Shown piece after piece: positions 1-58,380 of a stretch of DNA of 64,000 nucleotides (within the stretch, counting starts at the first letter, position 1; every line of letters begins with the position of its first letter). The stretch lies in the NCBI GenBank assembly GCA_963828345.1, contig CAWHEZ010000019.1, positions 61,568 to 125,567 on the forward strand, given 5' to 3'. Source of the DNA: an uncultured delta proteobacterium (GTDB lineage Bacteria > Desulfobacterota > Desulfobacteria > Desulfobacterales > SpSt-501). Under the pieces are notes generated by a model that searched no databases, was not told the origin of the DNA, and was given only the letters and a program-made list of their open reading frames with translations. The position numbers and the translations under genes were made by a program.

Positions 1-135
1 AGGTTGAGCAACGAGATAGTGGCCAGAGATTTGGACGGAGTGCTTCATACACTCACTGAAATGTTAAAACTTAACAAGGATTTTATGATTATGTTTGCAG
101 ACAGATATTTAGGACTTTGGAAAAAGGTAAATTAG
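1..135 (+). CDS. 3' end (44 codons) of an unidentified CDS entering from upstream of the window
   Basis: Frame 1 is open from base 1 to TAG at 133-135 (...LKLNKDFMIMFADRYLGLWKKVN*). Low-GC context. No family recognised. Confidence 0.25.
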   Translation, partial: RLSNEIVARDLDGVLHTLTEMLKLNKDFMIMFADRYLGLWKKVN

Positions 136-764
136 CACGTCTTCAGCCACTGGAAAAATCATTTGGTTAAAATTTAGTGACACCCACTAAAGGTGTGGTC
201 AAAAGAAAAAACAGTTTCCAAACTTAAGTCCAGTTTCAGCATATGACTGGCCCCTCCATCGCCATAGGAAGGCTTAAAATTATTGAACATCTCTTTGAAG
301 GCGTTTGAAGGCGTCTCCGGGTGAGTGCGATAATTTTAAGGAAAATCTAAAACTTTTCCTTACAAAAAAAATATGTGAAACGATGAGTTAAAAACCTCTT
401 TCACAATACCCAATCATCGCTATTCAGGACTACAGAACTTAGCGAATCCGCTAATCAATTCTTCCCGACTATCGCCCTCCTGACGGTTGCGAATTCCCTA
501 CGTGCGGCCGCTCGCCGCATTTTCCGGCCTTTATCTCCGATTGTCACTATCCTCCCTGGAGCCGTAAGCCGACCCGGGGATATATTCGAATCAAAATGCC
601 GCCTGAAACGGCAGATCACGAGCCTGCGCATCCGTCGGGCTGAGTTTTTTGACAATATAATTACCCTCCGCTACAGATTGCTATCCTTGATTCGGATTTC
701 TATCCCCTCATGCTGGAAGCGAAAGGGTGTTTTGGACCGAACCCCTGCCATCCTTCCAATAGCG

Positions 765-1045
765 ATGACCGTCGAAGGTCCTATCCCGGTCTGCGACCTC
801 GGCTTCATCCTGCCCCACGAACACGTCCTGATAGATACGTCATCATTTTTCGTCCCTGTCCAAAACAAAGGCGAACGATTTCGTGAAGATGAGCCAATCC
901 GCTTGGCAAATCTGAGTTGGGTCCGCTACAACACCCGGCACAGCCGCGACTGCCTCAGCAAACTCGATCTCGATGCGGCGCTTCATGAAGTCGATCTTTT
1001 CCGCAAATCCGGCGGGGGCACCATTCTCGATCTTACGGCCCAAAT
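765..1045 (+). pseudogene. phosphotriesterase-related (PHP/PTER, amidohydrolase superfamily) gene, N-terminal ~95 codons only
   Basis: MTVEGPIPVCDLGFILPHEHVLID... shows the G-x-x-L-x-HEH start typical of PHP/PTE proteins. Sensible similarity stops near 1045, where the 325-bp repeat module begins. The rest of ORF 678..1316 is read-through into that module. Confidence 0.6.
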
Positions 1046-1073
1046 AAAAAACCGAACCTCTCCTGAGGTCCGG
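1042..1073 (-). terminator. intrinsic terminator closing the micro-ORF module
   Basis: The minus strand reads CCGGACCTC-agga-GAGGTTCGG followed by TTTTTTATTTG. An equivalent hairpin plus T-run is conserved at 52945..52980. Confidence 0.6.
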
Positions 1074-1373
1074 CTTTCTGACCGGAATGGTCATGCGACA
1101 TTCTGTGCAGACGTCTTTTACATGAAGATCAAAAAGATTGTCAAGCCACTACAGGCGCGGTCCTACGTCATCCGTCCCACGTGTTTTCTTTTTGAGAAGT
1201 CTCTTGAGCTGCCTTGCCTTTCGCAGATCGCGGGCACCTGTGACGGCACAAACTGCCAACACGGCACAGTAAAAAATCAACATGGCGATCAAGAAGTAAG
1301 GGTTCCCCATGCATGAACAATGATCACGGTGTCATCGTTTGCCAAGGCGGCACGAAAAGGAGCAGGCCGAATG
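1045..1373 (-). repeat. ~325-bp repeat module, copy 1 (inverted partner at 52651..52975)
   Basis: By-eye alignment of 1045-1373 with the reverse complement of 52651-52975 is colinear and roughly 80-85% identical. The only indels seen are two 3-nt ones inside the micro-ORF. Confidence 0.85.
1149..1310 (-). CDS. 53-aa predicted membrane micro-protein (MGNPYFLIAMLIFYCAVLAVCAVTGARDLRKARQLKRLLKKKTRGTDDVGPRL), below the ORF-track cutoff
   Basis: ATG at 1310-1308 and TAG at 1151-1149. One hydrophobic helix followed by a Lys/Arg tail. The paralog at 52713..52868 differs by many synonymous changes and only in-frame indels. Confidence 0.6.
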   Translation of the reverse strand: MGNPYFLIAMLIFYCAVLAVCAVTGARDLRKARQLKRLLKKKTRGTDDVGPRL

Positions 1374-1553
1374 AACGCAGAAAGCGTAAAAACCGAACTA
1401 CTGATGAGTCATTTCCGACATGCGCTTGATCAGCTCAGCGGCCACTACGCCGAGCTGGGCGACATCGACGCCCTGGCCGACGTTCGGCGCGTGGTGGAGG
1501 CGGCCGTGGATGATGCGCGGGTGCGGTCTAATTATATAGCTAAAATTTACTAA
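1371..1553 (+). CDS. hypothetical 60-aa protein, divergent from the micro-ORF
   Basis: AAGGAG lies 7 nt upstream of ATG 1371. Sequence is MNAESVKTELLMSHFRHALDQLSGHYAELGDIDALADVRRVVEAAVDDARV... GC drops sharply over the last ~10 codons, suggesting a truncated or fused 3' end. Confidence 0.35.
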   Translation: MNAESVKTELLMSHFRHALDQLSGHYAELGDIDALADVRRVVEAAVDDARVRSNYIAKIY

Positions 1554-1683: not shown

Positions 1684-1902
1684 TTACAAGGCATTCGGAT
1701 TGTCGGTGCGGACCCACTTGCTGTCTTTAAGCACGTATGGGTCAGGTGGATGGGTATCGGGTGGGGGGTCAGCGGCGGATTCTGAAAATTTTGAGAAGAA
1801 GTCCTCCTCCTTCGCAGCCAGATACCGAACCGCAAGAACGATAAGGAGCATAGCGTTGAAACCGAGGAAAATTATTAGTGCAATTTTTAAAAATTCGTTC
1901 AC
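1684..1902 (-). CDS. hypothetical 72-aa membrane protein
   Basis: GTG start preceded by AGGAGGA at 5-6 nt spacing. N-terminal hydrophobic helix IALIIFLGFNAMLLIVLAV. Confidence 0.45.
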   Translation of the reverse strand: MNEFLKIALIIFLGFNAMLLIVLAVRYLAAKEEDFFSKFSESAADPPPDTHPPDPYVLKDSKWVRTDNPNAL

Positions 1903-2542
1903 GGTTTCCTCCTGGGGGAAAATGGGATTTCACAATTAGATATCGGCATGTTGTGGAAATTCTTTATCGGAGTTTTAACTAATGCGAGGGGATGAGCATG
2001 GGAAGGTCAACGAAGGCACAGGCGGCGGCAGACAGCGGTGGCCCTCCACCTGACAATTCAAAGATGCTGGCCGAGTTGCGGGCTGAAGAGTCCGGTCATC
2101 GTGAGCGTGCGGCGAAGTTGCTGGAAGAGAAGAAGGCGCCAGGAGCACCCTTCGTAGATCATCCCGCGGACATACTTCCCCGCCGCTTCGTGCTGTGGGT
2201 CCGGCGCGAACACGCGGGCATAGATGGTTTTAGTCGAAGACATGGCAACTCCTATAAACACTAAACCCGAGCAAGAAGGCCTGCTAAGTCTCCCTGCTCG
2301 GGTGGGGTTCGATAGCGGACACTATCCGCAGGGGTCCCACACCCTGCGCCGAAAGGGTAAGGCATTGGGATGAACTTGCAAGGGATGATGGGTCAACCGA
2401 ACAGGTGATGGATAAGTGCAATCCCAGCAACGCCGAAGACGATCAAGGCCGCGAGGAAGTGAAACGGCGTAAAGCCGAAGGGGTCATCGTTTTTCATGCG
2501 GGGCGTTAAACCAGAAACACGGGAGAAACTCAAGGGGGCGAT

Positions 2543-3260
2543 ATGGGAATCCTGGCGCAATGCCCGACATGCCGCACCAAGCAGAAGGTGGCCAACAAGC
2601 GGTGCCGCTGCGGCGAGGACATGGACAAGGCTAAGAAGGCAAACCGGGTGCAGTACTGGGTCTCCTAGTATCTGCCGGGTGGAAAGAACCGGCGCGAGCC
2701 TGTGGGCTTCAGCATCGATGAGGCACGGGATGCCGAAGGGAAGCGGCGGGGGCAGAAGAGGGAAGGGCGGTTCTTCGACATGCTGCCTGACTCCAAGAAG
2801 ACGTTTGCCGATCTGGCGGAATGGTTCATCGACACGGCGAAGATCAAGAACCTGGCCTCTCGCGGGAATGTGGTGCGGCACCTGGTCATCTTCAACGAGA
2901 CTTTTGACCGGAAGCAGATCACACCCTCACCCGCGACGAGCTCCTGTCCTTCAAGTTTGCGGAGCGCAAGAACAGCAGGGCCGATAGCTATATCGATCAG
3001 ATTGTCGACTCCGCCCGGTGGATGGTGACCGACGCGCTGGAGGATGATCAGATCGCCGGCGACTGTCTCAAGCCCTTCCGCAAGCTCAAGCCGTTCTGCA
3101 AGAAGGGCCAGAACGCCCGAAAGCGGGTGCTATCCTTTGAAGAATACAATCGACTGATGGAGGCCCTGCTGCCCCACCTAAAGCCCATCGTGGCGACCGC
3201 CTGGTGGACCGGGATGCGGCAGACCGAGATCCTTCGGTCGACCAGATGGAGGTATTTTTC
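2543..3260 (+). pseudogene. tyrosine recombinase / phage-type integrase, degraded
   Basis: ATG 2543 follows AGGGGG. N-terminal Cys ribbon CPTCRTKQ..CRCG. In-frame TAG at 2666-2668. Frame change near 2920 (NETFDRKQI / HTLTRDELLSFKFAERKNSRADSYIDQIV). Similarity ends after WWTGMRQTEIL near 3250, before the catalytic C-terminal half. Confidence 0.7.
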
Positions 3261-3314
3261 GGAAATAGTGACCAGGAAGGCGTAAACAAGTCATAATCTT
3301 TTGAATTTGTTTAC

Positions 3315-28378: not shown

Positions 28379-29262
28379 GCCCCTTGCGGCGTCGGCGCTG
28401 CGTGGAACATCTCAAGGGGCAGTTTCGTATATCTGAGCGGCGACTGTGCGGGATTGTAGGGCAACCGCGATCGAGTCAGCGCTATGTGATCCACCTGCGG
28501 GGGGATGAAGAGATACTGTGCGCTGAGATCGTGCGATTGGCCAGCCAGTATGGCCGGTATGGGTACCGGCGCATCACGGTGCTGTTGCAAAATAGCGGTT
28601 GGCGCGCGAACCACAAGCGTGTGGAGCGGATCTGGCGTCAAGAGGGGCTGAAGGTTCCCAAGCGGCAGCCCAAACGAGGCCGCCTGTGGCTCAACGATGG
28701 GTCGTGTGTGCGGTTGCGGCCCGTGCACCGCAATCACGTGTGGTCCTATGATTTTGTCAGCGAACGCACGCACGACGGTCGTCCGCTGAAGATCCTGACG
28801 CTGATCGACGAATACAGCCGGGAGTGCCTGGCGTTGCTGGTCGAGCGCAACATCAGCAGCGATGATGTGCTCTATTGTCTGGCCGATATGTTCATCCAGT
28901 ACGGCATACCGGATCATATCCGCTCGGATAACGGACCCGAGTTTACAGCCAAGCTCGTGCGGCAGTGGCTTTCAAATATCGGAGTTAAGACGCTCTTTAT
29001 CGAACCCGGCAGCCCATGGGAGAACGGGTACAACGAGAGCTTCAACGGCAAGTTCCGAGATGAGTTGCTGAATCGGGAGTTGTTCTTTACGCTCAAGGAG
29101 GCGAAGATCGTTATCGAGAACTGGCGACGGGAATACAACACGATCCGTCCCCACAGCAGCCTCAACAACCGGCCACCGGCACCCGAGGCCATCTTGCCCC
29201 CACTCCTGCATCAGCCTTGGGTGATCGGGCCACGTCAAGAAATGGGATTAACTCTAACTTAA
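28366..29262 (+). CDS. IS3-family transposase OrfB (rve/DDE), expressed as an OrfAB fusion by -1 frameshift
   Basis: Slippery heptamer G_GGA_AAC at 28366-28372 in the orfA frame. The -1 frame continues ...RRRRCVEHLK. WSYDFV...LTLIDEYSRE...IRSDNGPEF...PGSPWENGYNESFNGKFRDE. Confidence 0.85.
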   Translation, partial: GKLLSPLRRRRCVEHLKGQFRISERRLCGIVGQPRSSQRYVIHLRGDEEILCAEIVRLASQYGRYGYRRITVLLQNSGWRANHKRVERIWRQEGLKVPKRQPKRGRLWLNDGSCVRLRPVHRNHVWSYDFVSERTHDGRPLKILTLIDEYSRECLALLVERNISSDDVLYCLADMFIQYGIPDHIRSDNGPEFTAKLVRQWLSNIGVKTLFIEPGSPWENGYNESFNGKFRDELLNRELFFTLKEAKIVIENWRREYNTIRPHSSLNNRPPAPEAILPPLLHQPWVIGPRQEMGLTLT

Positions 29263-50663: not shown

Positions 50664-50987
50664 CGGATTCTAATGGGGGCAGGGGGAACGTCCATTGGAT
50701 TATCATTTGACCGCTGATATTCCTGCTGCTGCCTGCACGGCATGCCACGAAAAGCTCGATTAGACACACCGGGAGCGCTGCACCACATCGTCGTGGGAGG
50801 CATCGAGCGACGCAAGATCTTCTGCGTTGATAGCGACCGGGACGACTCCCTGAAGAGGCTGGGCGAGGCAGGCGGCGTACGGGAGCTGGGGCTCACTGCG
50901 GTGGAACTCGCCTGCAGACTGAACCGGGCTCAACCGACAGGCAGCCAATCTGCCGACCGAGGGGAGCAGATTGCAGACGAAAAGTGA
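50664..50987 (+). pseudogene. internally deleted RAYT/IS200-like (Y1 HUH transposase) gene with conserved leader, type A
   Basis: MPRKARLDTPGALHHIVVGGIERRKIF (HUH = HHI) is joined after ~40 codons to a C-terminal HTH tail LGLTAVELACRLNRAQPTGSQSADRGEQIADEK. The catalytic Tyr region is absent. Confidence 0.6.
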
Positions 50988-51050
50988 AAGGGGTCACATC
51001 TTGATTTGTGATTCCAAAACGCATGTCTCTTATGGGCGCAAGAAACACGA

Positions 51051-51303
51051 ATGATTTTCCACATCCCGCATGCATCGACTGCCATCCCGCCCGCTATTCG
51101 TGCCGGGATAGTCCTCAGCGATGAGCAACTCGCCGAAGAGATCCTGAAGATTACCGACTGGTTCACGGATGACCTGTTCGGGAGCCATGCCCGAGCAGGG
51201 GACACCGCCCTCGTGTATTCAGTCTCAAGACTAATAGTCGATCCCGAGCGTTTCATCGACGACGCGCAGGAGCCAATGGCCAAGGTGGGGATGGGTGTTG
51301 TCT
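51051..51303 (+). pseudogene. N-formylglutamate amidohydrolase-family gene, first ~84 codons, cut by the IS21 end
   Basis: About 94% identical at DNA level (by eye) to the intact paralog starting at 57115. Identity stops at 51303 / 57367. Confidence 0.8.
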
Positions 51304-52650
51304 TCACCTGCGTATTCCGACGCAATCCGGCCACCGATTCCGATCGAAAGCGGCCACTGATTCCGATCCATTCCGGCCACCCATTCCGATCCAAAGCGGC
51401 CACCCCTGAGGATCGGTTCTCGCGGAGCTGACAGCAACGCTGGTTAACCCGTCAGACCGCCGGTAGAAGGCACCCCAAATTCCCTATTTGGAGGTGTCAT
51501 GCCGGCCACGAGGTTGACCATGCGTAAGATCCGTGAAGTGCTGCGTCTGGCCTTCGACTGTCAGCTGACCAAGCGCCAGATCGCCACCAGCTGCTCCATC
51601 GCCCGAAGCACCGTCTCCGAGTACCTCATGCGCTTTGCCGCCTCGGGGCTGAGCTGGCCGCTGCCGGCGGAGACCGACGACGCGAAGCTGGAGGCGCCTG
51701 CTGTTCCCGCCGGCCCCGCCCCCGGTCGAACATCCCCGCGAGCCGTTCGACTTCGTCTACATCCACCGGGAGCTGCGCCGCAAGGCGGTCACCCTGATGC
51801 TCCTGTGGCAGGAGTACAAGGCCGCCCACCCCGACGGCTACCAGTACAGCCAGTTCTGCAACCTGTACCGGCAGTGGGCCGAGCGGATCGACCCGGTCAT
51901 GCGCCAGGAGCACCGGGCCGGGGAGACGCTTTGCGTCGACTGGGCCGGCATGACGGTGCCCATCGTCGATCCTCTCTCCGGGACCGAGCAGCCGGCCTCG
52001 ATCTTCGTGGCCGTGCTGGCGGCCTCCAACTACAGCTATGCCGAGGCCACCCTCAGCCAGCAGCTCGCTGACTGGCTCGGCGCCCACTGCCGCGCGTTGG
52101 CCTTCTTCGGCGGAGCCCCGCGCGCGCTCGTGCCCGACAACACCCGCACCGGGATCACCAAGGCCTGCTTCTACGAGCCCGACCTCAACCCCAGCTACCT
52201 GGAGATGGCCGATCACTACGGCACCGCCATCCTGCCCACCCGCGTCAAGAAGCCCCGCGACAAGGCCAAGGTGGAAGGCGGGGTCTTGATCGTCGAACGC
52301 TGGATCCTGGCGCGCATCCGCAACCAGAGCTTCTTCAGCCTGGCCGAGCTCAACCGGCGCATCGCCGAGCTGCTGGAAGAGCTCAACCTCAGGCCCTTCC
52401 AGAAGCTGCCCGGCTGCCGGCGTCAGGCCTTCGAGGAGATCGACCGGCCCGAACTCAAGCCGCTGCCCGCACAGCCCTACCAGTTCGCCGAGTGGAAGCG
52501 GGCCACCGTCCACATCGACTATCACGTCGAGCTCGAGGGCCACTACTACAGCGTTCCCTACCGGCTGGTCGGCAAAAAGATCGACCTGCGCTACACCCCG
52601 ACCACGGTGGAGTGCCTCTACCAGAACACCCGCGTTGCCAGCCACATCCG
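51304..52650 (+). mobile_element. IS21-family element fragment: left end plus istA; istB and right end missing
   Basis: Three copies of CGGCCACnGATTCCGATC-like terminal repeats at ~51327-51395. IstA ORF downstream. The element stops at the micro-ORF module junction near 52650. Confidence 0.8.
51499..52650 (+). pseudogene. istA: IS21 transposase IstA, frameshifted (~51695) and 3'-truncated
   Basis: HTH MRKIREVLRLAFDCQLTKRQIATSCSIARSTVSEYL. After the frame change, LLFPPAPPPVEHPREPFDFVYIHRELRRKAVTLMLLWQEYK...DWAGMTV...PDNTRTGI...KPRDKAKVE (DDE core). Confidence 0.85.
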
Positions 52651-52975
52651 CATCTGGTTGGTTCCTTTTTAGGCACCTTGGCAAACGATGATGCCGTGAT
52701 CATTATTCGTGCATGGGAAACCCTTACGCCTTAATCGTGATGTTGCTTTCTTACTGTGTTGTGTTCGCAGTTTGTGCCGTCACAGGTGCACGCGATCTGC
52801 GAAAGGCAAGGCAACTGAAGAGACTGCTCAAAAAAACACGCCCCACGAATGATGGACCCCGCGTGTAGCGGCGTGACAATCTTTTTAATCTTCATGTAAA
52901 AGACATCTTCACAGAATGTCGCATGACCATTCCGGGTCAGAAGGAACCGGGCCTCAAGAGAGGTTCGGTTTTTTG
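52651..52975 (+). repeat. ~325-bp repeat module, copy 2 (inverted relative to 1045..1373)
   Basis: See copy 1. Similarity starts at the istA break and ends at the terminator T-run. Confidence 0.85.
52713..52868 (+). CDS. 51-aa predicted membrane micro-protein, paralog of 1149..1310
   Basis: ATG 52713, TAG 52866-52868. MGNPYALIVMLLSYCVVFAVCAVTGARDLRKARQLKRLLKKTRPTNDGPRV. Confidence 0.6.
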   Translation: MGNPYALIVMLLSYCVVFAVCAVTGARDLRKARQLKRLLKKTRPTNDGPRV

Positions 52976-52980
52976 TTTTG
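52945..52980 (+). terminator. intrinsic terminator of micro-ORF module copy 2
   Basis: AACCGGGCCTC-aaga-GAGGTTCGGTT followed by TTTTGTTTTG. Confidence 0.6.
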
Positions 52981-53065
52981 TACTCAATGGGGGGCAACAC
53001 ACATGGCAGAGTCCGCGCGTGACCATCTTCGGAGACGCTTGACCGTTATCTTCAGGAAACGCATA

Positions 53066-53535
53066 GAGGACGTCCATTGGTTTATCATTTGCCAATTAAG
53101 TGGAAATATGGGGACGCCCCTGTTTTTACGGGGCAGCGGGGACGTCCATTGGAATATCATTAGACCGCCGATATTCCTGCTGCTGCCTGCACGGCATGCC
53201 ATGAAAAGCTCGATTAGAGACACCGGGAGCGCTGCACCACATCGTCGTGGGAGGCATCGAGCGACGCAAGATCTTCTGCGCTGATAGCGACCGGGACGAC
53301 TCCCTAAAGAGGCTGGGCGGGGCAGGCGGCGTACGGGGGGGCAGGGGGGACGTCCATTGGAATATCATTTGACCGCCGATATTCCTGCTGCCGCCTGCAC
53401 GGCATGCCACGAAAAGCTCGATTAGACACACCGGGAGCGCTGCACCACATCGTCGTGGCCAGGGGCGAGGGGACGGGTATGAAAATATGAAATTCTTACG
53501 TATCCTAAAGGGATTGCGAGGGAAATATCCTGAAA
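53066..53535 (+). repeat. head-to-tail array of RAYT-like gene leaders / 5' fragments (one type B leader, two type A leader+start units, one upstream-flank unit)
   Basis: GGACGTCCATTGG...TATCATT leaders at 53069, 53140 and 53348. ATGCCA(C/T)GAAAAGCTCGATTAGA starts at 53197 (CGA->TGA nonsense) and 53404. GTATGAAAATATGAAATTCT unit at 53478, also at 58178. Confidence 0.8.
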
Positions 53536-56922: not shown

Positions 56923-57068
56923 CTGGGCGGGGCAGGCGGCGAACGGGAGCTGGGGCTCACTACGGTGGAACTCGCCTGCAGACTGAACCTGGCTCAACCG
57001 ACAGGCAGCCAATCTGCCGACCGAGGGGAGCAGATTGCAGACGAAAAGTGAAAGGGGTCACATCTTGA
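56923..57068 (+). repeat. 3' tail of a type A RAYT remnant (start of the 445-bp duplicate of 50859..51303)
   Basis: CTGGGCGGGGCAGGCGGCG...GCAGACGAAAAGTGAAAGGGGTCACATCTTGA is colinear with 50859-51004. Confidence 0.85.
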
Positions 57069-57114
57069 TTTGCCATTCCAAAACGCATGTCTTTTATGGG
57101 CGCAAGAAACACGA

Positions 57115-57885
57115 ATGATTTTCCACATTCCGCATGCATCGACGGCTATCCCGCCCGCTATTCGTGCCGGGATCGTCCTCAGCGATGAGCAACTCGCCGA
57201 AGAGATCCTGAAGATCACCGACTGGTTCACGGATGACCTGTTCGGGAGCCACGTCAAAGCAGGGGACACCGCCCTCGTGTGTCCGGTCTCAAGACTGGTG
57301 GTCGACCCCGAGCGTTTCATCGACGATGCGCAGGAGCCCATGGCCAAGGTGGGGATGGGTGTTGTCTACACCAGGGCATCGGGGGGCGAGACACTGCGCC
57401 TGCCGCCGACGGCGGAAGAAAGGGGGCTTCTTCTCGGCACTTACTACCGGCCGCCCCACGAGCGGCTGTCGCATGCCGTGGATGAGGAGCTGAAAATTAA
57501 TGGCAAGGCCGTGATCCTGGACTGCCACAGCTTTCCATCCGAGCCGCTCCCGTACGAGCATGACCCGAACCCCGATCGCCCCGATGTCTGCATCGGTACA
57601 GATGATTATCACACACCACCATGGCTACCGGCGGCCTTGGAGGGGCAGTGTCAGTTCGAGGGGCTGACCTATGCCTTGAATCGACCTTTCTCAGGTTCCA
57701 TCGTTCCGTTGGAACATTATCAGACCAATCCCAACGTCTTATCTATTATGATCGAGGTCAACCGCAGACTCTACATAAACGAAAAGACATGCGAGAAGTC
57801 AGCCTCTTTCGATAACTGCCGGAAAATTGTCGGGAGAATGGTCACCGTTCTTCGGGCAGCTGCAGCAGATCGGCTTCTATTGTGA
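57115..57885 (+). CDS. N-formylglutamate amidohydrolase-family protein (intact copy)
   Basis: MIFHIPHAST..., SRLVVDPER, ILDCHSF, IEVNRRLY. Confidence 0.8.
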   Translation: MIFHIPHASTAIPPAIRAGIVLSDEQLAEEILKITDWFTDDLFGSHVKAGDTALVCPVSRLVVDPERFIDDAQEPMAKVGMGVVYTRASGGETLRLPPTAEERGLLLGTYYRPPHERLSHAVDEELKINGKAVILDCHSFPSEPLPYEHDPNPDRPDVCIGTDDYHTPPWLPAALEGQCQFEGLTYALNRPFSGSIVPLEHYQTNPNVLSIMIEVNRRLYINEKTCEKSASFDNCRKIVGRMVTVLRAAAADRLLL

Positions 57886-58177: not shown

Positions 58178-58380
58178 GTATGAAAATATGAAATTCTCAT
58201 GTATCCAAAAGGGATTGCGAGGGAAATCGCTCACATGAGGGGGGCAGGGGGGACGTCCATTGGATTATCATTAGACCGCCGATATTCCTGCTGCTGCCTG
58301 CACGGCTTGCCACGAAAAGCTCGATTAGACACCCCGGGAGCGCTGCACCACATCGTCGTGGGAGGCATCGAGCGACGCAA
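58178..58380 (+). repeat. type A RAYT upstream flank + leader + first ~24 codons
   Basis: GTATGAAAATATGAAATTCTCATGTATCCAAAAGGGATTGCGAGGGAAAT..GGGGACGTCCATTGGATTATCATTAGACCGCC..CCACGAAAAGCTCGATTAGAC. Confidence 0.8.

Follow-up and report, generated by a model that had tools for sequence, protein, structure and literature searches.

A repeated small-ORF module, probably a membrane-protein cassette of prophage-like elements, in an uncultured deltaproteobacterium

A stretch of 64,000 nucleotides from an uncultured delta proteobacterium (contig CAWHEZ010000019.1, positions 61,568 to 125,567), referred to below as the window, contains two inverted copies of a module in which a small open reading frame (ORF), encoding a hydrophobic peptide with a basic tail, directly follows a promoter-like site. 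As a whole, the evidence leans towards this repeat being a small accessory cassette of integrative prophage-like elements in uncultured Desulfobacterota-type bacteria, which would carry membrane cargo expressed from a leaderless mRNA. Concerning the small ORF itself, its translation is very probable.

Two copies of the module in the window

When the window was compared with itself by BLAST, positions 1042-1347 and 52978-52676 formed an inverted repeat with 85.4% identity over 309 bp (E 3e-95), the sole repeat of its kind within the window. Judged against the further copies described below, module homology extends over approximately 1042-1375 on the minus strand (copy 1) and 52650-52980 on the plus strand (copy 2). 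Each copy has the ORF, a hairpin and then six T, and the GC content of the modules is 0.50 vs. 0.60 for the window. The parts of the two copies are as follows:

1149..1310, minus strand: small ORF of copy 1, 53 aa, translated 1310->1149 as MGNPYFLIAMLIFYCAVLAVCAVTGARDLRKARQLKRLLKKKTRGTDDVGPRL
52713..52868, plus strand: small ORF of copy 2, 51 aa, translated as MGNPYALIVMLLSYCVVFAVCAVTGARDLRKARQLKRLLKKTRPTNDGPRV
1317..1345, minus strand: promoter-like site of copy 1, TTGGCA (1345->1340), 17 nt, CATTGT (1322->1317), with 6 nt between it and the ATG, by direct reading
52678..52706, plus strand: promoter-like site of copy 2, TTGGCA-17-CATTAT, with 6 nt between it and the ATG at 52713
1075..1148, minus strand: conserved 3' non-coding stretch of copy 1, with a predicted stem-loop and two GCNTGACMRT repeats (1146->1137, 1096->1087)
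1046..1074, minus strand: terminator of copy 1, CCGGACCTC-AGGA-GAGGTTCGG-T6, hairpin 1074->1052 and T6 1051->1046
52869..52974, plus strand: 3' stretch and terminator of copy 2, hairpin 52941-52974, repeats 52871-52880 and 52921-52930
52975..53046, plus strand: post-terminator stretch of copy 2, found elsewhere only at locus L002, with repeats 53017-53026 and 53037-53046

A preliminary description of this DNA, made from its letters, had reported both unannotated ORFs, and the two peptides it quoted were reproduced exactly on translation. Its count of the differences between them was also close to the measured one, namely 13 synonymous and 11 non-synonymous nucleotide differences, nine amino-acid replacements and two single-codon indels.

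No terminal inverted repeats, such as those of an insertion sequence (IS) or a miniature inverted-repeat transposable element, were found at the module ends, nor was a duplicated target site visible in the aligned junctions, the flanks differing between the copies. The idea that the two copies delimit a composite element or an inversion of 51 kb was considered and rejected, as the interior is ordinary chromosome and the flanks reconstitute neither of the broken genes. Between 3.5 and 50 kb, the window holds CheW/chemotaxis, GGDEF, HDOD, sigma-54 response regulator, radical SAM, TctABC, ABC transport and aminotransferase genes, so that what lies between the inverted copies is not a prophage. 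Amid these otherwise ordinary chromosomal genes lies an IS3-family transposase ORF (28384-29262, plus strand) with HTH_21, rve and rve_3 domains.

Further copies and relatives

Five distinct close copies of the module were found: the two of the window and three from metagenomes or a metagenome-assembled genome (MAG), at loci L001, L002 and L007/L008. The L002 copy, in the MAG of an uncultured deltaproteobacterium (CAWBSC010000026.1), was the one match of a pattern scan of reference genomes, for which the query was a strict 30-mer from the 3' region, so that copies consisting of the ORF alone were outside its reach. It is 94% identical to copy 2 over 399 bp, both flanks included. Two contigs from the metagenome scan (L003 and L004) represent the same locus as copy 1.

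At the protein level, the peptide proved very rare. A word-indexed search of 5.8 billion clusters gave a single match (P0001, 89% identity). Two more proteins, P0003 (59 aa, E 2e-6) and P0004 (57 aa, E 8e-6), came from a profile search that went exhaustively through 1.84 billion representatives; they are 42-47% identical to the small ORF peptides and share with the close copies M-x-x-x-(Y/W), LIFY, VT, DLR and the basic tail. Two long repetitive proteins, also matched in the latter search, were judged not to be relatives. A profile search with five sequences added P0006, which, like P0001, is a close copy. At E 1e-4, blastn matched the contigs carrying P0003 and P0004 neither to the window nor to any of the other loci.

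A collection of 15 billion predicted proteins contains neither of the window peptides among its called genes; small ORFs are under-called, and protein searches hence undercount the family. The small ORF is a member of a tiny new small-protein family with about eight known sequences, of which about six are distinct, all of them from environmental samples. Phage and plasmid records had no match by blastn or tblastn, IMG/VR had none with the peptide patterns or with two DNA patterns, and no intact phage carrying the cassette was found in either set.

Evidence that the small ORF is coding

Between copies 1 and 2, the Nei-Gojobori ratio of non-synonymous to synonymous substitution rates (dN/dS) is 0.23-0.26 over the full length, and 13 of the 24 differences are synonymous, vs. 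25% expected from the share of such sites (binomial p 0.002). For codons 1-39 of the five copies, the corresponding ratio of proportions (pN/pS) ranges from 0.17 to 0.41 in all 10 pairs, with values of 0.29-0.41 for copy 1 against the other four, and 10 of the 22 variable codons vary only synonymously. When all six frames were scored, the ORF frame was stop-free in every copy and had the lowest pN/pS in four of six pairs; in a fifth pair it exceeded the lowest value by no more than 0.03, and in the remaining one, copy 2 and L002, the frames were poorly separated. Moreover, the copy 1/copy 2 indels are whole codons that keep the frame, and in L001 and L008 the homology ends within about 7 nt past the stop codon. 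Promoter plus ORF are therefore the conserved unit. The suggestion that this is a selected coding sequence was thus supported by the synonymous excess, the low pN/pS, the in-frame indels and the distant relatives at the protein level.

The preliminary description had also regarded a 212-aa ORF (678..1316) as an artefact, and rightly so: it joins a fragment of a phosphotriesterase (PTE)-like gene to the antisense strand of the module, the PTE homology ending at nt 1037, and its frame has a pN/pS above 1 in four of six pairs. A 220-aa ORF running antisense through the L002 module (7-669, plus strand) is a similar artefact, without a family match. Two other kinds of frame were rejected. An antisense ORF beginning MKIKKIV has 64, 54 and 20 open codons in the three copies that carry the 3' part, and its pN/pS is above 1. 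Short ORFs beginning in the 3' region and crossing the terminator lack a ribosome-binding site, and one of those in copy 1 runs on as PTE antisense.

Features of the peptide

The Kyte-Doolittle maximum over 19 residues is 2.6-2.7 and falls at residues 6-24 (2.67 in copy 1), and the tail carries 10-11 Lys/Arg vs. 2-3 Asp/Glu (11 and 3 in copy 1), a net charge of about +8. AlphaFold2, run with a five-sequence alignment, gave one helix over residues 4-46, with a confidence of 85-94 in the hydrophobic part and lower values in the tail. These features agree with the one hydrophobic helix and Lys/Arg tail first described, and suggest a single-pass membrane protein with an N-terminal helix of about 20 residues followed by a basic amphipathic tail. 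By the positive-inside rule, basic segments lie on the cytoplasmic face, and the tail would therefore be cytoplasmic.

As had been anticipated, the peptide belongs to no named family: none was matched in Pfam, NCBIfam, PHROG or PADLOC. Weak matches to a LapA domain, FtsL and one holin family were far below the cut-offs and reflect a common arrangement, a helix with a basic stretch behind it. Known toxin families (Hok, Ldr, TisB, Fst, TxpA and others) gave no Pfam, NCBIfam or PADLOC match beyond noise at E up to 0.1-1.

Expression signals

In all five copies, a promoter-like site ends 6-7 nt ahead of the ATG, its form being TTGGCA-17-CATTAT, with AATTAT in L008 and CATTGT in copy 1. A promoter scan returned TTGGCA-17-CATTAT/AATTAT as the sole sigma-70-like site on either strand around copy 2, L001, L002 and L008; no such site was thus found on the opposite strand of these four copies, and an RNA antitoxin would have to start from a promoter of another kind or be encoded in trans. 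The promoter-like site and the terminator of copy 1 were not reported by the scan, the former being plain by eye and the latter by eye and by folding. A sigma-54 promoter in the TGGCA stretch was dismissed by inspection, owing to wrong spacing.

No purine-rich Shine-Dalgarno sequence precedes the ATG in any copy, whereas the divergent neighbour of copy 1 has an AAAGGAG ribosome-binding site. Since a Shine-Dalgarno is lacking and the end of the -10 element, 6-7 nt before the ATG, would place the transcription start at its A, we infer that the mRNA is leaderless. No Rfam family was matched, permissive thresholds giving only noise, and folding of the whole transcript was no better than that of shuffled sequences (z -1.7 and -1.0). 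A pairing between the 5' and 3' parts that forms in copy 1 does not hold in copy 2 and was not retained.

The 3' non-coding part

The 3' non-coding part is found in copies 1 and 2 and in L002, and is missing from L001 and L008. Between copies 1 and 2 it diverges by 10-13%, vs. 15% for the ORF overall and 34% at synonymous sites; its divergence being below that of synonymous sites, this part is therefore constrained at the nucleotide level. The reported hairpin and T6 terminator is indeed present in both window copies (1074->1046 and 52941-52974), with a stem of 14-15 bp including the A-tract/U-tract extension, and its pairing is kept by all five one-sided changes among three copies. In the 3' stem-loop, no compensatory change was seen among the three sequences.

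The preliminary description had placed a TTGACA-N18-TAAAAG motif in the conserved stretch. The stretch is indeed conserved and the motif is present in copy 1 (1144->1115), but the first hexamer reads GTGACA in copy 2, the second lacks the final T, for which reason the motif fails a consensus scan, and an internal promoter is not supported. The TTGACA would be better read as part of the first of a set of same-strand direct repeats, GCNTGACMRT, two of which occur in copy 1, four in copy 2 and four in L002. Ten are present in the window vs. 1.95 expected, six of them in the two modules and on the ORF strand; as the motif was defined after the sites had been seen, these counts overstate the case. 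All four exact matches of L002 lie inside the module, and four within 176 bp is far beyond chance. The fourth repeat ends exactly where the homology between copy 2 and L002 ends (53046 in the window, 450 in L002). The repeats are putative protein-binding sites at the integrase-distal end of an element, rather than a promoter. An initial guess at a 13-mer repeat, RTGAYCATYNNYC, was too narrow.

A related 9-mer, RTGAYCATY, also defined after its sites had been seen, occurs 10 times in the window vs. 3.7 expected. Five sites are in the modules, on the ORF strand (1319-1327 and 1086-1094, minus; 52696-52704, 52923-52931 and 53019-53027, plus). One of them overlaps the -10 element of the promoter-like site of the ORF, and the 9-mer is a candidate operator.

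Genomic context of the copies

The features that surround the two window copies are listed below:

765..1037, plus strand: PTE-related pseudogene, N-terminal ~93 of ~356 residues, HxH metal-binding motif kept
1371..1553, plus strand: divergent 60-aa ORF adjoining copy 1, AAAGGAG ribosome-binding site, no family match
2263..2381, plus strand: conserved non-coding stretch of ~120 bp upstream of the integrase region, 85% identical to L002 5743-5861
2543..3285, plus strand: tyrosine-integrase-like pseudogene, frameshifted and truncated, its start MGILAQCPTC common to L002 6065-6102
51499..52672, plus strand: IS21-type transposase gene, frameshifted and 3'-truncated, with helix-turn-helix, rve and Mu-transposase C-terminal domains

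In the 8 kb of the L002 contig that were covered, the module lies beside a divergent gene and is followed by a broken ORF resembling a terminase large subunit (phrog_2, E 2.6e-8), and about 5 kb further by a broken integrase (phrog_1, E 9e-21) that adjoins the 3' end of a tRNA-Arg gene. A search of L002 for an attachment repeat derived from the tRNA gave a candidate that scored no better than shuffles. The island of copy 1 has the same order and orientation, with the module, the 120-bp stretch and the Zn-ribbon-like integrase start MGILAQCPTC, and is without some 4.9 kb of terminase-like sequence. For the window, the identification as an integrase is a reading of motifs, the fragments having no Pfam or NCBIfam match, whereas the L002 integrase has its PHROG match. 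The neighbouring gene in the divergent position differs at every copy. In L008, the ORF is followed after 18 nt by an HTH_17 gene (excisionase/AlpA-type), and a gene with a regulator domain precedes the ORF.

Two side observations concern the island of copy 1. A hairpin, CCCGAGCA...TGCTCGGG, lies in the 120-bp stretch, for which a role as a regulatory RNA or as a recombination site of the element is conceivable. A second small membrane ORF (1684-1902, minus strand, 72 aa, MNEFLKIALIIFLGFNAMLLIVLAV...), without a family match, stands between copy 1 and the remnant of the integrase; its ribosome-binding site, AGGAGG, is strong, and its tail is acidic and rich in proline.

On its other side, copy 1 meets the PTE-related fragment at 1033-1042. 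The fragment, from MTVEG (nt 765) to ILDLT (nt 1037), aligns with residues 12-104 of 356-aa PTE-related proteins (PDB 9efa/3k2g, E 4e-9), and with profile positions 4-68 of 298 of Pfam PTE (E 0.0014), in agreement with the claim that a PTE-like gene is broken at the module. The remaining ~250 residues are absent from the fragment; no search for them elsewhere in the window was made. In the L004 metagenome variant, window positions 865-1032 (168 nt) are replaced by 68 nt (L004 1644-1711) holding a ribosome-binding site, GGAAAGGAG, and the ATG of another ORF (MTEAALILKRLRDYSK...). Since L004 has a different junction at the terminator, the junction is variable in the population and is a deletion product, not a clean insertion. 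On the same contig, a tRNA-Cys gene lies some 2.2 kb further left than the start of the window.

Concerning copy 2, the IS21 fragment joins its upstream edge at the point where the lost divergent gene had its start codon, and fragments of other repeats follow on the downstream side of the copy. Four units of 120-208 bp, 95-97% identical, were noted at 50675-50883, 53130-53337, 53337-53458 and 58240-58380, apparently including, by reading alone, the start of an IS200/Y1-type transposase (..LHHIVVGGIERRKIF). A 450-bp duplication (94%; 50859-51308 vs. 56923-57372) has as its first member an N-terminal fragment of an N-formylglutamate amidohydrolase gene, the full gene being at 57070-57885. The region from 50.6 to 53.5 kb is a patchwork of gene fragments (the amidohydrolase duplication, the IS21 fragment and copy 2).

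Interpretation

The reading favoured here is that the window holds two decayed remnants of one element family, each of which would have kept the cassette that stood at the integrase-distal end of the element. The core unit would be a promoter followed directly by a 51-53-codon ORF for a single-pass membrane protein, and the 3' part would consist of about 75 nt of conserved non-coding sequence and an intrinsic terminator, plus about 70 nt in copy 2, with two to four GCNTGACMRT repeats. The PTE and IS21 'break points' would be junctions that arose as the surroundings of the remnants were deleted and rearranged. The product may be a moron-like cargo protein that serves the element from within the inner membrane of the host, for instance in exclusion or envelope modulation, and could be toxic at high dose. 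The module would then belong to a prophage-like integrative element, which comes near a finding that the preliminary description had named as adverse, though it is part of no gene already described. A doubtful variant is a self-contained addiction or exclusion module, in which a leaderless membrane toxin would be controlled by a DNA-binding protein of the element acting on GCNTGACMRT/RTGAYCATY, or by an undetected antisense RNA against the 3' region; if true, this would explain why the cassette has outlived its carrier elements.

Several points weigh against the accessory-cassette reading. All statistics rest on a few related copies (five close, two distant). The terminase of L002 depends on a single PHROG match, and Pfam gave nothing on the ORFs of the L002 island, the terminase-like one included. 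P0004 lies between thiamine pyrophosphate (TPP)-enzyme and amidase-like genes, with no mobile genes in its 1.1-kb contig, so that the small-protein family may extend beyond mobile elements. The repeat motif was chosen post hoc, no second GCNTGACMRT cluster was seen near the integrase end, and neither an attachment-site repeat nor a tRNA-derived core repeat was found. The -10 element of copy 1, CATTGT, is below the scan threshold, and the leaderless start rests solely on consensus matches. Finally, L002 carries an additional nucleotide (+1 nt), with a stop after codon 40, and this one frame-breaking copy goes part of the way towards what the preliminary description had named as adverse; a dispensable tail, a decaying copy or sequence errors in the MAG would each account for it. 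The neighbouring integrase and terminase-like genes of that MAG are also broken into frames.

Two of the alternatives assign the peptide a lytic or toxic role, and for the resemblance to type I toxins or holins originally proposed, none of the tests brought support: no antisense promoter (four copies), Rfam match, lysis or endolysin neighbour, or holin family was found. In a type I toxin-antitoxin system, a membrane-depolarising toxin would have its 3' untranslated region (UTR) targeted by a cis-antisense RNA, as in txpA/RatA, bsrG/SR4 and yonT/SR6. This is possible, at a low probability. A hydrophobic protein of 51-53 aa (below the approximately 60 aa usual for such toxins), with one predicted membrane-inserting helix and a charged tail, would fit, as would its two copies in one genome on prophage-like remnants and the low divergence of the 3' region (0.10-0.13 vs. 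0.34 at synonymous sites). Persistence in decayed elements is, moreover, typical of addiction modules (PMC2887945, PMC6563280; for yonT/SR6, PMC5848175). Nevertheless, no sigma-70-like promoter was found on the opposite strand of copy 2, L001, L002 or L008, L001 and L008 keep the ORF without the 3' region, folding is unremarkable, neither Rfam nor the known toxin families are matched, and the apparently leaderless mRNA has no structured 5' leader, unlike known type I toxin mRNAs. A holin or another prophage lysis protein is the least probable explanation and clearly unlikely: one transmembrane helix with a highly charged C-terminus, the adjoining terminase-like genes in L002 and a weak Pfam Phage_holin_3_6 match, in copy 2 only (E 0.037, 14.5 vs. 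a 28.4-bit cut-off), have to be set against the lack of an endolysin or spanin gene nearby in any context, an ORF divergent from the terminase-like genes, the absence of a PHROG match, the ORF's own promoter-like site and its retention in dead remnants.

The other two alternatives concern what is conserved and to whom it belongs. If the ORF were fortuitous and the conserved entity were non-coding DNA or RNA (an element end, a regulatory region or a small RNA), the missing Shine-Dalgarno, the repeats and hairpins of the region, the non-coding module parts being as conserved as the ORF, the frame-breaking change of L002 and the absence of both window peptides from the called genes would find a ready explanation. 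It would leave unexplained the synonymous excess specific to the ORF frame, the in-frame indels of the window copies, the end of L001/L008 homology just past the stop codon and the 42-47% relatives on contigs without a DNA match to the window (blastn E 1e-4); a purely non-coding nature is accordingly unlikely. It is also doubtful that the ORF specifies an ordinary chromosomal small membrane protein, a regulator or subunit like AcrZ, MgtS or CydX, lying in mobile DNA by chance. A transmembrane helix with a short cytoplasmic tail fits many such proteins, and P0004 does lie between metabolic genes, but every one of the five close copies has break points or integrase, terminase-like, excisionase-like or IS sequences at its flanks, their neighbours differ at every copy, leaving no conserved partner gene, and their GC content is below that of the surrounding chromosome.

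Taken as an accessory cassette, the module opens no new class of system and is a real but fairly ordinary accessory gene. It provides a well-supported additional example of a small protein gene missed by automatic annotation and a case of probable leaderless membrane-peptide expression in Desulfobacterota-type bacteria that is open to testing. For the window, it corrects the annotation of the 212-aa ORF, a PTE pseudogene read through antisense DNA, and indicates that this chromosome region holds two remnants of one integrative-element family.

Comparison with known systems

AcrZ, MgtS and CydX are small single-pass bacterial inner-membrane proteins that gene callers routinely miss. The peptide resembles them in its ~50 residues, one helix and short polar tail, and differs in having no sequence relation to them, no conserved partner gene and a mobile-element context. 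As for expression, the lambda cI mRNA made from the PRM promoter is leaderless; the module has, likewise, a -10 element placed for a start at the A of the ATG and no Shine-Dalgarno, the parallel being drawn here from DNA signals, whereas its product is a membrane peptide and cI is a repressor.

The Bacillus subtilis prophages carry type I toxins with 3'-overlapping antisense RNAs, namely TxpA/RatA, BsrG/SR4 and YonT/SR6 (PMC5848175, PMC2887945). The module shares with TxpA, BsrG and YonT the peptide size, the single helix, the charged C-terminus, the location on prophage remnants, the presence of more than one copy and the conserved 3' UTR. Unlike these, it has no antisense promoter that could be found, no sequence similarity to them and no 5' leader, and its 3' region is dispensable in two copies.

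Phage 'morons' are independent promoter-ORF-terminator units added to prophage genomes (PMC3594210). Like them, the module is a compact unit with its own promoter-like site and, in copies 1 and 2 and L002, an intrinsic terminator, both recognised from sequence signals, and it lies beside prophage-type genes, with varying neighbours and a GC content below that of the host DNA. Its carriers, unlike those of morons, are small, degraded and uncharacterised, and two of its copies are without the terminator part.

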